A DNA stretch of 64,000 nt from the NCBI GenBank assembly GCA_028866655.1, contig JAGWHQ010000004.1, forward strand, positions 7,674 to 71,673, written 5' to 3'. Below are positions 55,825 through 59,319 of this stretch, piece by piece. The DNA comes from Nitrososphaerota archaeon (GTDB lineage: Archaea > Thermoproteota > Nitrososphaeria > Nitrososphaerales > Nitrosopumilaceae). Position 1 is the stretch's first letter. Every line of letters starts with the position of its first letter. The position numbers and the translations under genes were made by a program. The notes beneath the pieces were generated by a model. The model was not told the origin of the DNA, made no database searches, and saw only the letters and a list, made by a program, of their open reading frames with translations.

Positions 55825-56217
55825 TTGAATATAGTTATACAGATTTGTATAGCTATGAGCAATCCCCCTGATGATAATTTTAGTAATATTATAAGACAAA
55901 TTATAAAAAAATCATCATTTACTGAAAGACAAATTGCAATTATTTTAAAACGTAAGAACCTTGTAGACTCGCAGTTTACTATCAGTAAAGGGGCATTTTA
56001 TCGACAAGTAACCCAGTCTAAAGACAAGTTGACTGCACTATGCTATTCATGGATCCTGCTCAGGAGCCTAGGCGTGCTTAGTAGTGATGATATTGATGTG
56101 ATAAATCGCCTTTCTGAGCAGGTTTCTGTGATACAAAGTAGTGATGTTTTTCCAGAACGTGAGGAACAAATCATGTCTGTGATACAGGAAGTACTAAAAC
56201 GGACCTGTAACCTATAA
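55825..56217 (+). CDS. Hypothetical protein with predicted HTH
   Basis: FTERQIAII...ISKGAFYRQVTQSKDKL resembles a sigma-region-4/LuxR-type HTH; alternative ATG at MSNPP. Confidence 0.65.
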   Translation: MNIVIQICIAMSNPPDDNFSNIIRQIIKKSSFTERQIAIILKRKNLVDSQFTISKGAFYRQVTQSKDKLTALCYSWILLRSLGVLSSDDIDVINRLSEQVSVIQSSDVFPEREEQIMSVIQEVLKRTCNL

Positions 56218-56260
56218 TTTGGCTTCAAAAATAGGCACGTTTTGGCAAATGGTTGTGATA

Positions 56261-56335
56261 AGATGTGATTAGATGTGTTTGATATTGATGTGTAAGATGT
56301 GAAATAATTTTACTCAAACATGATAAATCACATCA
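56261..56335. repeat. Array of (A/T)GATGTG heptamers
   Basis: Direct copies at 56261, 56271, 56286, 56295; inverted copy CACATCA at 56329-56335. Confidence 0.6.
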
Positions 56336-56349
56336 CTTGACGTTACATC

Positions 56350-56910
56350 GTGATGTTAGTAGACATACCAGACGTAGGAGTCATTTTAAGCGTATTTGCA
56401 TCATTTATTGGCGGACTAGTAGCTATTACAGTGTACAACAAAGTAAGGCCACGACTAAAATCAGATGCCGAAAATGCAAAAATTCTAACAGAACGCTTAC
56501 AGTATTATGAAAATTTGTTAATTGATATGAAAATTCGTTTAGATTCAGTAGAAATGGCACAAGAAACCCAGGAAATTCCTCAAGCACAAATTCCAAGGCC
56601 AAAGGAGCAAAAAGTACAGCAAGAACCTCCAGTAATTGTCAAAGAGGAGAAGCCAAAGGAGAAAATCCAGAATGTGCAGTTTGGAAATGTCACGGATCAT
56701 GTTCTACGTTTAATCACAGAGAAGTCAATGACATCACGTGACATACAAGTCACATTAGGAAGAACTAGAGAACACACATCACGTATGTTAAAGAAGTTGT
56801 TTGAGGAGGGTTTGGTCGAAAGAGACATGACAACAAAGCCATTTTCCTATAAAATAACTGACAAGGGTCTTACAAGGATAGGGGTTATCAAGATGGCTCC
56901 AGCCCAATAA
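56350..56910 (+). CDS. Membrane-anchored wHTH (MarR-like) protein
   Basis: N-terminal TM, coiled coil, C-terminal wHTH MTSRDIQVTLGRTREHTSRMLKKLFEEGLVER...YKITDKG. Confidence 0.8.
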   Translation: MMLVDIPDVGVILSVFASFIGGLVAITVYNKVRPRLKSDAENAKILTERLQYYENLLIDMKIRLDSVEMAQETQEIPQAQIPRPKEQKVQQEPPVIVKEEKPKEKIQNVQFGNVTDHVLRLITEKSMTSRDIQVTLGRTREHTSRMLKKLFEEGLVERDMTTKPFSYKITDKGLTRIGVIKMAPAQ

Positions 56911-57084
56911 CTTTTAGGATATCAATAGTTTTCAGATCAAGAAATTAGGACCAACCCCGGTTATTTTTTAATTAATTTAATCTCCAGTCTATTCAATTTT
57001 CTATCAGGTCATCAAAAATCATTATATTTTAATAATCTTAATTAATTGTAAATTCTTAAATTATTGTTCTTATAATGTAATAAC

Positions 57085-57237
57085 ATGTCTAATGAGCAAT
57101 TAATCAAAATTACCACTGCAGGAACAATCTCAATCCCTAAAGACTTTAGAAAATTCTTGGAACTTCAGAAAGGAGACTATGTCAAGATCACAATAGATGG
57201 GGATCACCTAGTGGTCAAAAAGGTAGTAATCTCCTAA
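57085..57237 (+). CDS. AbrB/MazE/SpoVT-family DNA-binding protein, 50 aa (missed by ORF track)
   Basis: MSNEQLIKITTAGTISIPKDFRKFLELQKGDYVKITIDGDHLVVKKVVIS. Confidence 0.85.
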   Translation: MSNEQLIKITTAGTISIPKDFRKFLELQKGDYVKITIDGDHLVVKKVVIS

Positions 57238-57632
57238 GGCCCATTCTTTTCTCTCTGGGCTATCTTTAGTATCTGGTAGGCCCATTCTTTTCCTTGTTTT
57301 TCCCTTGCTACTCTACCCTTTACTGCAAATCTGGATAGATATGTAGAGATCACGCTCAGCTTGATGGGTTCATCATACTCATCTTCGTATTTTTCCAATA
57401 TCATTGAGGAGGTAAATTTGCCTATGGGGAAGTTCTTGTCTATTATATTCCATATCTTGGCTCCTATGGAATCCAATTGGGCTCCTCCCCCCTCTGGTTC
57501 TTCTATATTCATAAGGTTCATCAATTCAAATATCTTTAGCATCTTTTCACGAGTAACATTTCCCTCTAGGCTAAAGTTGTACTTGGCTCCATCCGAGTCT
57601 TCCAAGTCTATTCTGATTCTTTTTCGGGCCAT
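57234..57632 (-). CDS. Origin-adjacent hypothetical protein with C-terminal wHTH
   Basis: FTSSMILEKYEDEYDEPIKLSVISTYLSRFAVKGRVAREKQGKEWAYQI wHTH pattern. Confidence 0.7.
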   Translation of the reverse strand: MARKRIRIDLEDSDGAKYNFSLEGNVTREKMLKIFELMNLMNIEEPEGGGAQLDSIGAKIWNIIDKNFPIGKFTSSMILEKYEDEYDEPIKLSVISTYLSRFAVKGRVAREKQGKEWAYQILKIAQREKNGP

Positions 57633-57645
57633 TGGGATCGATCTG

Positions 57646-57926
57646 GTTAACTGTTAACACTTGAACAGATCATAGAAGATTTGTTAACTAGTGGGTTTGT
57701 TAACATTCACTGCCTAGCCCACGCCTAGCCATTTTTGATATCTTAACAGACCTTATGAGGCTTATATTCAAACAAGCCCATATTTCATGCCTAGAGTGGA
57801 AACAATGGGGTATTCTTTAGGATGTTAACAATGTTAAGAGCCATCTTCACGCCTGGACTGGAAATAAAGGGGTCATTTTGGGCTTTTCAGGACCTTATGT
57901 TAACAGAAAGTTCACTAATTGTTAAT
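57646..57926. repeat. Cluster of GTTAAC palindromes in the origin region
   Basis: Exact copies at 57646, 57653, 57683, 57699, 57824, 57899; near-matches at 57742, 57833, 57921. Confidence 0.7.
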
Positions 57927-58070
57927 ATCATTTCAGGAAGACTCACACACCTATACTTCCACTCTAGCTTTATTTAAAAAATTTTTTTAATGAAAATAAA
58001 AATAAAAATAATTAATGATATACTAAATTTGGTTTAGTTATTCTATTCTAATCTAATTAATTGAGTAGAG
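57791..58070. other. Probable replication origin oriC: three ORB boxes plus AT-rich unwinding element
   Basis: CTAGAGTGGAAACAATGGGGT (57791-57811), CTGGACTGGAAATAAAGGGGT (57853-57873), inverted CTAGAGTGGAAGTATAGG (57967-57950); AT-rich 57969-58070; directly upstream of cdc6. Confidence 0.85.
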
Positions 58071-58077
58071 TCCTTAT

Positions 58078-59319
58078 GTGGATAGAGAAGAAACGATGGT
58101 GTGTGGGTTCATGACAAAAGATCCAATTGATAAATTATTAGATGATGCACAAAGTGGCAAGTCATTATTTAAAAATCGTGAAGTCCTACATTTTACATTT
58201 ATTCCTGATGTAATTTTACACCGCGAGGACGAACAAAAAAAGGTCACCCAATCACTATTACCATTATTAAAAAAATCACGTCCTTCCAATCTACTAGTTT
58301 ACGGAAAACCAGGTACAGGAAAGACATTGGTAGTAAAGAAAGTTCTTGGTAAGATACAAGAACGAGTAAAGGATAACTCTTTTCCAATTCAATTGCTTTA
58401 TGCTAACGCAAAAGAAGAGACTACTCTCTATGGATTACTAGTAAAATTAGGCAGACAATTGGGTCTTACATCCCAAAAGGAACTACCTTCTACAGGGCTT
58501 TCAATTAGTGAAGTATTCAATCGTATTATTGCAGTAATTGAGAAGAATGAGCTAAACACAGTGTTCGTAATTGATGAGATTGATTATCTCGTAGAACTTG
58601 TCTCTAAATCAGGTAAAGATGTATTTTATTCACTAACCAGAGCCAATGAGAGGCTAAAAAAGGGCACATTAACCCTGATAGGAATTTCCAACGATCTCAC
58701 ATTCAAAGAACGCCTAGATCCTAGGGTCCTAAGCAGTCTAAGTGAGGAAGAGGTAATCTTTACCAATTATACCGTCGAACAGATCAACGAAATTCTTGAT
58801 GAGCGTATCAAGGTCGCCTTTGTACCAAATACTGTAGAGCAGGCAGCCCTAAACCTATGCTCTGCCATGTCTGGCCAAGAACATGGGGATGCAAGAAGGG
58901 CAATTGACCTTTTACGTGTTGCAGGTGAGATTGCCGAGCGTGAACAATCTGATACAGTAAAGGAAGACCACATACGAAGAGCCTCTCTTAAGATGGAGGA
59001 AGATAAGGAAACCACTGCATTGAATTCATACCCATTACATGAAAAATTACTCATACTTGCAGTAATGAAGGCAAGCGGAAACACAACTGGTGAGATATAC
59101 CAATCATACAAAAATCTCTGTAAAATTACAAGACAAAAAGAACTAACCCAGCGTAGAATTACACAGATGCTAAGTGAGATAGAAATGACCGGATTAATCA
59201 CAGGAAAAATTGTTCATCAAGGAATGCATGGAAGAACAAAAAAATTCAATCTCACACTAAATGCTGATACTGTAAAAAAAGCATTCAAAGAAGATCTAAC
59301 CTTAGAAGATCTCTTGTAA
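58078..59319 (+). CDS. cdc6: Orc1/Cdc6 replication initiator
   Basis: YGKPGTGKT, VIDEID, GDARRAIDLLR, C-terminal wHTH GRTK; alternative start ATG 58111. Confidence 0.97.
   Translation: MDREETMVCGFMTKDPIDKLLDDAQSGKSLFKNREVLHFTFIPDVILHREDEQKKVTQSLLPLLKKSRPSNLLVYGKPGTGKTLVVKKVLGKIQERVKDNSFPIQLLYANAKEETTLYGLLVKLGRQLGLTSQKELPSTGLSISEVFNRIIAVIEKNELNTVFVIDEIDYLVELVSKSGKDVFYSLTRANERLKKGTLTLIGISNDLTFKERLDPRVLSSLSEEEVIFTNYTVEQINEILDERIKVAFVPNTVEQAALNLCSAMSGQEHGDARRAIDLLRVAGEIAEREQSDTVKEDHIRRASLKMEEDKETTALNSYPLHEKLLILAVMKASGNTTGEIYQSYKNLCKITRQKELTQRRITQMLSEIEMTGLITGKIVHQGMHGRTKKFNLTLNADTVKKAFKEDLTLEDLL

Follow-up and report, generated by a model that had tools for sequence, protein, structure and literature searches.

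A conserved array of TTAACA-type hexamers between the origin recognition boxes of Nitrosopumilaceae, with an adjacent winged-helix protein as candidate reader

As the spacer between a gene for a 132-aa protein (p132; 57234-57632, minus strand) and orc1/cdc6 (58078-59319, plus strand; Pfam Cdc6_lid, Cdc6_C and AAA) of a Nitrosopumilaceae archaeon (assembly GCA_028866655.1, contig JAGWHQ010000004.1) carries a crowd of GTTAAC palindromes among its origin recognition boxes (ORBs), we were interested whether these hexamers form a second code at the origin, what the selected unit is, and which protein may read it. The window, that is, the whole stretch of 64,000 nucleotides analysed here, holds nine copies of GTTAAC, and six of them lie inside 259 bp, at exactly the positions listed in the original prediction (57646, 57653, 57683, 57699, 57824 and 57899; the remaining three are at 2046, 34196 and 37865). 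Four of the six occur as TGTTAACA, one each as GGTTAACT and TGTTAACT, and three near-matches are present as claimed (TCTTAACA at 57741, TGTTAAGA at 57832 and TGTTAATA at 57920). The first copies do lie 14-26 bp upstream of the p132 gene, relative to its ATG at 57632, and the cluster is indeed interleaved with three ORB-like boxes (ORB1, 57786-57811; ORB2, 57848-57873; ORB3, 57944-57968). Measured against expectation, as had been proposed, GTTAAC shows no overall enrichment (9 against 11.9 expected from shuffles), but its clustering is extreme, with a Poisson p of 1.8e-11 for at least six copies in a fixed 260-bp span and of about 3e-8 after scan correction. TTAACA/TGTTAA behaves likewise: 12 of the 46 window copies fall at 57652-57925, in less than 300 bp, the 34 elsewhere compare with roughly 34 expected for the whole window under a higher-order Markov model, and no second cluster exists in the 64 kb. 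Within the flanks of related loci (434 kb from 80 loci) only two other clusters of at least three hexamers within 120 bp were detected. The clustering at the origin is real and far beyond chance.

About ten sites, S1 to S10, make up the array. An operator-like block at its left end (57636-57671, conservation 0.96-0.98) adjoins the p132 start codon and contains GATCGATC (57636-57643), S1 (GGTTAACT, 57645-57652), S2 (TTAACA, 57654-57659), a degenerate TTGAACA (57661-57667) and a GATC (57668-57671). S3 (TGTTAAC, 57682-57688) and S4 (TGTTAACA, 57698-57705) are direct copies of TTTGTTAAC spaced at a period of 16 bp (57682-57705), so that four or five units at 57645-57705, framed by three near-invariant GATC, adjoin the start codon. 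S5 (TTAACA, plus strand) is at 57743-57748. Between ORB1 and ORB2, S6 and S7 form the composite palindrome TTAACA-A-TGTTAA (57825-57837), and between ORB2 and ORB3 follow S8 (TTAACA, 57900-57905), the weak S9 (TTCACT, 57911-57916) and S10 (TGTTAA, 57920-57925), with S8 and S10 in the arrangement TTAACA-N14-TGTTAA (57900-57925).

For comparison within the family, 80 orc1 loci were fetched from species genomes of Nitrosopumilaceae (Orc1 identity 70-99%), covering Nitrosotalea, Nitrosarchaeum, Nitrosopumilus and Nitrosotenuis as well as metagenome-assembled genomes (MAGs). GTTAAC occurs at about -450, -415, -400, -275 and -180 from orc1, the same in nearly all 80 loci; the absence from other origins of ammonia-oxidising archaea (AOA) which the original prediction had raised against itself was thus not what we found. 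Alignment of 66 spacers, with conservation calculated as weighted identity per column, gave 0.98 for the hexamer columns, 0.89 for ORB1-3 and 0.62 for the remaining spacer. The pooled matrix consists of a loose 5' base (G 0.55, C 0.28, A 0.16, T 0.02) followed by T-T-A-A-C-A at 0.94-1.00 each, with weak flanks. At S2, S5, S6 and S8, at least 58 of the 66 relatives (58 at S5) retain TTAACA and the two bases 5' of the hexamer are variable; the full palindrome GTTAAC is kept there in 29 (S2), 21 (S6) and 10 (S8) relatives. For S7 and S10 the conserved form is TGTTAA, and the full TGTTAAC(A) is retained only at S3 and S4, with GTTAAC in 65 of 66 relatives at each. Site-by-site retention of TTAACA or TGTTAA, together with the pooled matrix, therefore points to an asymmetric 7-mer, [G>C>A]TTAACA, in about ten copies and both orientations as the selected unit. 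The palindrome proposed originally does not hold as the unit, the more so as some lineages carry TTCACA; the HpaI-type site would be a frequent by-product of the 7-mer, and GTTAAC and TGTTAACA arise from the preferred 5' G or from an overlap of two units. The original distinction from ORBs is borne out, as the hexamers lack the ORB core, and they are under strong purifying selection. We are confident that this is a selected and ancient array of predicted non-ORB binding sites within the origin.

The array is not confined to close relatives. Contigs of distant p132 homologues (27-45% identity) were looked up, supplemented by a metagenome scan (a further scan, with P0261, gave no match), and 450 nt upstream of the homologue were searched in 20 lineage representatives (less than 70% p132 identity, down to 27%). 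The array recurs in all 20: TT[A/C]ACA was found 141 times where 19.5 were expected, and in 16 of the 20 lineages its count exceeded all 300 dinucleotide shuffles. TTGACA and TTTACA are nearly absent, save in one mixed lineage. Some lineages have TTCACA/TGTGAA in place of TTAACA with the architecture retained, and the head-to-head pair with a 1-nt spacer appears as TTCACA-T-TGTGAA in L091, between two direct ORBs, and as TTAACA-C-TGTTAA in L102. The p132 homologue is divergent from orc1 in every lineage whose contig extends to orc1, and a hexamer lies about 2-55 nt from the p132 start codon in every lineage inspected; frequent neighbours of distant p132 are the small subunit of DNA polymerase D (PolD), a membrane-anchored winged helix-turn-helix (wHTH) protein and a protein of about 130 aa. 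One p132 cluster at 90% identity includes NCBI records with the label Bathyarchaeota, and other clusters bear the label Nitrososphaeria or Nitrososphaerota, although labels of MAGs can err.

p132 is the candidate reader of the hexamers. It has no Pfam family assignment, and its relatives (4029 clusters at 90% identity, 216 at 50%) are called 'hypothetical protein' wherever named. An AlphaFold (AF2) model based on a 43-sequence alignment (predicted local distance difference test, pLDDT, 83) has an N-terminal beta-beta-alpha domain (residues 5-44), a disordered linker (approximately 43-55) and a C-terminal winged helix (56-121, pLDDT >94). Foldseek searches with this model returned only generic wHTH regulators (MecI, Fur, ArsR/SmtB and the centromere-binding AspA and TubR), all with E >0.001, and the alignment to MecI (1sax/1okr) gave a root-mean-square deviation of about 3 Å over 68 residues. 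Sequence methods link the winged helix weakly to the BlaI/MecI/CopY family: Pfam Penicillinase_R (PF03965) matched with E=0.008 and 16.9 bits (curated cut-off 22.6), NCBIfam CopY_TcrY with E=0.002 and 18.3 bits (threshold 121.95), and the PDB entries CopR 2k4b and BlaI 1p6r with E=0.0025 and E=0.1. In the HMMER alignment, positions 94, 97 and 101 of the p132 family correspond to BlaI T43, T46 and R50, which have been reported from a model based on nuclear magnetic resonance as contacts to the TACA/TGTA bases (PMC1935004), and the p132 recognition helix carries the T-x-x-T-x-x-x-R pattern of these base-contacting positions. T97, Y98, R101 and Y119 are invariant in the p132 family. The operators of BlaI and CopY are TACANNTGTA (PMC7253601; PMC1935004), with which TTAACA/TGTTAA share the ACA/TGT triplets.

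Residue 94 partly follows the motif variant. Thr, which is the family consensus and the BlaI residue, accompanies TTCACA in L081, L085, L091 and L093, and twelve lineages with Val, Ile or Leu have TTAACA-type sites. L097 carries Val94 and is nested among Thr-type sequences in a rough neighbour-joining tree; it has TCAACA/TTAACA and no TTCACA. A hydrophobic residue facing the thymine methyl group of A:T, as opposed to Thr at C:G, would be chemically plausible.

Computation shows that the hexamers cluster, are under purifying selection, keep constant places with respect to the ORBs and occur together with the p132 family across distant lineages, and it gives the structural class of p132; the identity of the binder, its stoichiometry, autoregulation and its effect on replication are inferred. 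The adjacent BlaI-like winged-helix protein p132 would be the most likely reader, a proposal for and against which the balance is about even. The original prediction had also named this neighbour as the best candidate, and the constant divergence from orc1, the hexamer close to the start codon, the aligned BlaI contact residues and the partial tracking of the variant by residue 94 all agree with it. Region 57645-57925 would then present about ten sites, each one asymmetric [G>C>A]TTAACA unit, to a sequence-specific DNA-binding protein. The N-terminal domain of p132 is presumed to mediate dimerisation, with the winged helix tethered by the flexible linker, and the winged-helix units of the presumed dimer would dock single hexamers through V94, T97 and R101 of the recognition helix; the linker would allow the dimer to bridge hexamers of varied orientation and spacing (7, 9, 11 and 16 bp, and the head-to-head TTAACA-N-TGTTAA). 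Four or five sites at -14 to -73 from the p132 start codon may serve as the operator for autoregulation, and those between ORB1, ORB2 and ORB3 would put p132 shoulder to shoulder with Orc1/Cdc6, where, as an accessory factor, it could influence the loading of the initiator, the architecture of the origin or its firing. That the hexamers are at once operator and origin sites for p132 is, in our estimate, a roughly even chance; if p132 is the reader, it probably acts at the origin and autoregulates. A direct role of p132 in replication is possible and falls somewhat short of even.

Several points weigh against p132 as the reader. Its homology to BlaI/CopY scores below the curated thresholds and its domain order is reversed. 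No convincing TATA box was found for the p132 gene, and the geometry of autoregulation is therefore conjecture. A strict rule that residue 94 sets A or C held in the first 14 lineages and was then given up, as L107 has Ile yet mostly TTCACA, L104 has Thr (LATISTYL) yet TTAACA like its close relative L102 (LAAISTYL), and L082 is mixed; because of these exceptions we count the co-variation only as suggestive support for p132, not as proof, and the lineages are moreover phylogenetically non-independent in a weakly resolved tree. Finally, the whole neighbourhood is syntenic, and the membrane-anchored wHTH and the 130-aa protein travel with p132 beside orc1, also in distant lineages. The former is a 186-aa protein here (56350-56910, plus strand) with one N-terminal transmembrane helix (hydropathy of 2.3 over residues 10-28) and a C-terminal MarR/TrmB-like wHTH (Pfam HTH_27), in which the helix TREHxxRxxKxL is nearly invariant across distant lineages, as for a conserved DNA target. 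With a second near-invariant recognition helix in a syntenic neighbourhood, adjacency alone does not single out p132. The hexamers may thus be genuine protein sites that are read by the 186-aa protein, by its 130-aa neighbour or by an unlinked nucleoid-associated protein or transcription factor, and Sulfolobus provides a precedent, as UBP, the reader of the origin motif ucm, was found by biochemical purification and not by gene neighbourhood. The 186-aa protein as reader could tether the origin to the membrane. However, no feature of the 186-aa or the 130-aa protein follows the A/C switch of the motif, their genes are not directly adjacent to the hexamers and have no hexamer clusters in front of them, and the BlaI-type residue correspondence additionally favours p132. 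A reader other than p132 appears rather unlikely, but the 186-aa protein is a serious alternative.

The sites might also be an ordinary operator array, through which p132 or another regulator only controls divergent transcription of p132 and orc1 (for example in cell-cycle control of orc1), the overlap with the ORBs being incidental. Autoregulation is common among small wHTH repressors, the sites next to the p132 start codon are the densest and best conserved, and one clade has an inverted copy of the block upstream of orc1, as expected of a portable promoter/operator cassette. Yet either start codon is 170-290 bp away from five or six of the sites, which are fixed between ORB1, ORB2 and ORB3 and conserved like the start-proximal ones, and the inter-ORB palindrome persists even where the motif sequence has changed; control of transcription alone is hence a rather unlikely explanation. 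Very unlikely are the hexamers as an extra class of Orc1/Cdc6 sites derived from degenerate half-ORBs. The origin that holds them is of an Orc1-dependent type, and TTCAC stands immediately before some ORBs (ATCTTCAC-GCCTGG at 57843-57855), but the hexamers have no similarity to the ORB core (GAGTGGAAA...GGGGT), and the motif switches between A and C across lineages in which the ORB core is unchanged. The original prediction had considered, besides sites for an accessory origin protein, a methylation-based timing signal. GTTAAC would then be the target of a DNA methyltransferase and its cluster a timing or sequestration signal like GATC at E. coli oriC. GTTAAC is a palindromic type II site, and the window has 3 copies outside the origin where base composition predicts 12; this depletion shrinks to a weak one under a higher-order Markov model (3 against approximately 5.7). 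At S2, S6, S7 and S8 no more than 9-29 of 66 relatives retain the exact palindrome, whereas TTAACA/TGTTAA is kept, whole lineages carry TTCACA instead, and for AOA methylomes a 2024 review gives only GATC (m6A, N6-methyladenine) and AGCT (m4C, N4-methylcytosine) and not GTTAAC (PMC11033074). Hence, a methylation code in GTTAAC is the most improbable of the explanations considered, and of the two interpretations offered originally only the accessory protein sites persist. Three GATC sites within 57636-57671 (57636-57643 and 57668-57671) flank the first hexamer pair and are 0.96 conserved in the 66 relatives, and GATC is m6A-methylated in marine AOA methylomes (PMC11033074). If there is any methylation signal at this origin, these would be the better candidates. 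The hexamers were also considered as TATA boxes, that is, sites for the TATA-binding protein, against which C at position 5 in 99% of the sites and the occurrence in both orientations argue.

p132, the membrane-anchored wHTH and the protein of about 130 aa form a conserved origin-proximal gene module. The companions of p132 were noted at 55825-56910 of the window and in L087, L090, L091, L093 and L097; the membrane-anchored wHTH often comes with the roughly 130-aa protein, which has no Pfam hits. More speculatively, the array might, together with the p132 family and the membrane-anchored wHTH, constitute an ancient origin-organising system of Nitrososphaeria and probably Bathyarchaeia, with a second reader required beside Orc1/Cdc6, either as a co-initiator or licensing switch gating Orc1/MCM or as a centromere-like membrane tether for segregation. 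We hold this to be a tentative and on the whole unlikely extension of p132 as reader; if true, helix position 94 would contribute to the specificity of the reader.

We regard the array as a form of accessory origin element, and its closest analogue is the ucm/UBP pair of Sulfolobus, which it resembles without being a member of that system. The ucm motif is a non-ORB origin motif without which the origin does not fire, and its reader is the small protein UBP (Dhanaraju et al., Nat Commun 2025; PMC12141716). UBP is described there as an abundant nucleoid protein of 111 aa that occurs only in Sulfolobales and Desulfurococcales. The ucm, of about 10-11 bp with the core TTATACAAAC (PMC12141716; Ori-Finder-Arch preprint), is placed in every origin within the unwinding element, between the inverted ORBs (PMC12141716). 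Both are short non-ORB elements of an Orc1-type archaeal origin, conserved across related species, with a small non-initiator protein as reader there and as candidate reader here. In contrast, we find about ten copies of an unrelated 7-mer whose consensus does not match TTATACAAAC, located at 57645-57925, upstream of ORB3 and outside the unwinding element (57969-58065), and p132 is a member of a wHTH family unrelated to UBP that occurs in Nitrososphaeria and in contigs with the label Bathyarchaeota. BlaI/MecI/CopY repressors control their own genes through sites that overlap the promoter. With this family p132 shares the T-x-x-T-x-x-x-R recognition helix, and its candidate sites are likewise built on ACA/TGT triplets, with a single head-to-head pair (57825-57837; TTAACA-N-TGTTAA compared with TACA-NN-TGTA, a 1-nt instead of a 2-nt spacer). 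Unlike TACANNTGTA operators, most sites here are single or irregularly spaced hexamers, and they lie at a replication origin; the presumed dimerisation domain of p132 is unrelated and N-terminal, whereas BlaI, MecI and CopY have the DNA-binding domain at the N-terminus and a helical dimerisation domain at the C-terminus, and no sensor-protease partner is evident for p132. Bacterial origins also carry accessory sites, namely those for IHF, Fis and SeqA (GATC) in E. coli oriC, CtrA boxes in Caulobacter Cori and Spo0A boxes in B. subtilis oriC. The likeness lies in multiple sites for non-initiator proteins interleaved with initiator boxes, which in bacteria tune initiation; domain of life, initiator (Orc1 compared with DnaA) and proteins differ, and the analogy is purely functional. 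Compared with ORBs and mini-ORBs, the hexamers are likewise repeated, orientation-specific elements of the same origin with family-wide conservation, but they lack the TCCAGTGGAAA-like dyad core, the GTGGAAA core and the G-string (GGGGT), where ORB1-3 carry GAGTGGAAA...GGGGT, and the unit is shorter, present in more copies and both orientations, and limited to one side of the unwinding element.

Ammonia-oxidising archaea count among Earth's most abundant microbes, and to our knowledge the control of their replication is known only as one origin, ORBs and one Orc1/Cdc6. An array better conserved than the ORBs, combined with a conserved unannotated DNA-binding protein, would suggest that the origin is recognised or regulated at a second level, which would span Nitrososphaeria and, by contig labels, Bathyarchaeia. 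Searches of the searchable full-text literature found neither a TTAACA-type origin motif nor the p132 family described, though the primary N. maritimus origin paper may hold a prior mention, and in its accessible part the Ori-Finder-Arch preprint (2026) recognises only ORBs and two Sulfolobus motifs. The array could be a concrete answer to the question raised with ucm/UBP, whether origin proteins of this kind exist in further archaeal lineages (PMC12141716). It leads to a specificity prediction, V94 with TTAACA and T94 with TTCACA, and, if true, would improve origin annotation and give a function to the p132 family, which is now without one.

The surroundings of the array have the anatomy of an archaeal origin. 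The spacer between p132 and orc1/cdc6 measures 445 bp up to the first possible orc1 start, contains two direct ORBs, an inverted ORB, an AT-rich element and an ORB-like box on the orc1 side, and lies in a region flanked by DNA polymerase D subunits; the homologous region of N. maritimus holds its single origin, mapped by marker-frequency analysis (PMC4010727; PMC5333045; PMC5797428). The archaeon is a Nitrosotalea-type ammonia oxidiser; its Orc1/Cdc6 is 99% identical to that of Nitrosotalea MAGs and 96% to that of Ca. Nitrosotalea devanaterra. ORB1 (CATGCCTAGAGTGGAAACAATGGGGT) and ORB2 (CACGCCTGGACTGGAAATAAAGGGGT) are conserved members of a direct repeat family on the plus strand, and the likewise conserved ORB3 is inverted (minus strand, reverse complement GCTAGAGTGGAAGTATAGGTGTGTG) and borders the AT-rich unwinding element (57969-58065, GC 0.17-0.25). 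Beyond that element, repeat family and conservation mark an ORB4-like box (TAGAGAAGAAACGATGGTGTGTGGG, 58083-58107, plus strand). The longest orc1 reading frame begins at GTG 58078, so that its stretch 58078-58111 overlaps this box; conservation and homologue alignments indicate ATG 58111 as the likely true start. At 57708-57730 (plus strand), two tandem truncated 5' halves of ORBs, CACTGCCTAGCC and CACGCCTAGCC, are identical with the GCCTAGCC repeat (57712, 57723) noted originally; they are conserved in the relatives and look like the CAYGCCTRG with which ORB1 and ORB2 begin, but lack the GTGGAAA...GGGGT part. The other repeat noted, GACCTTATG (57749, 57891), is present but unconserved in the relatives (columns 0.1-0.5), and we take it for lineage-specific chance.

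An Rfam scan of 56900-58300 for structured RNA gave one hit (E=0.92, 16 bits compared with a gathering score of 100) and nothing meaningful, and a sigma-70/terminator scan stayed at chance level and is irrelevant to an archaeon. Among public sequencing runs, RNA contigs and DNA contigs alike left 57600-57965 uncovered. Between p132 and the 186-aa wHTH gene, Nitrosopumilaceae have a 50-aa AbrB/MazE-type gene (here 57085-57237) without an evident adjoining toxin partner; as a reader of the hexamers it was discarded, since no gene is called there in the distant loci examined, though the motif is present. Inside the unwinding element, the block AAAAATAATTAATGATATACTAAAT (58003-58028) is almost invariant across Nitrosopumilaceae, and its Nitrosopumilus-type version AATTACAAACTAAAC loosely resembles Sulfolobus ucm TTATACAAAC, which is also located in the unwinding element; the block may be the TFB recognition element (BRE) and TATA box of the orc1 promoter or a ucm-like element. 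In L046, a Nitrosotalea MAG, an insertion of approximately 490 bp (about -640 to -170 from orc1), possibly with a small reverse-strand open reading frame, splits the origin between S10 and ORB3. In the clade of L041, L050, L051 and L052, where the orc1 N-terminus differs, the p132 start-proximal block recurs, inverted and in part (GATCGATC...TTGAACAGATC...TTGTTAAC), directly upstream of orc1, at about -170 to 0 from the orc1 match, and the origin is thus bracketed by inverted copies of this block.

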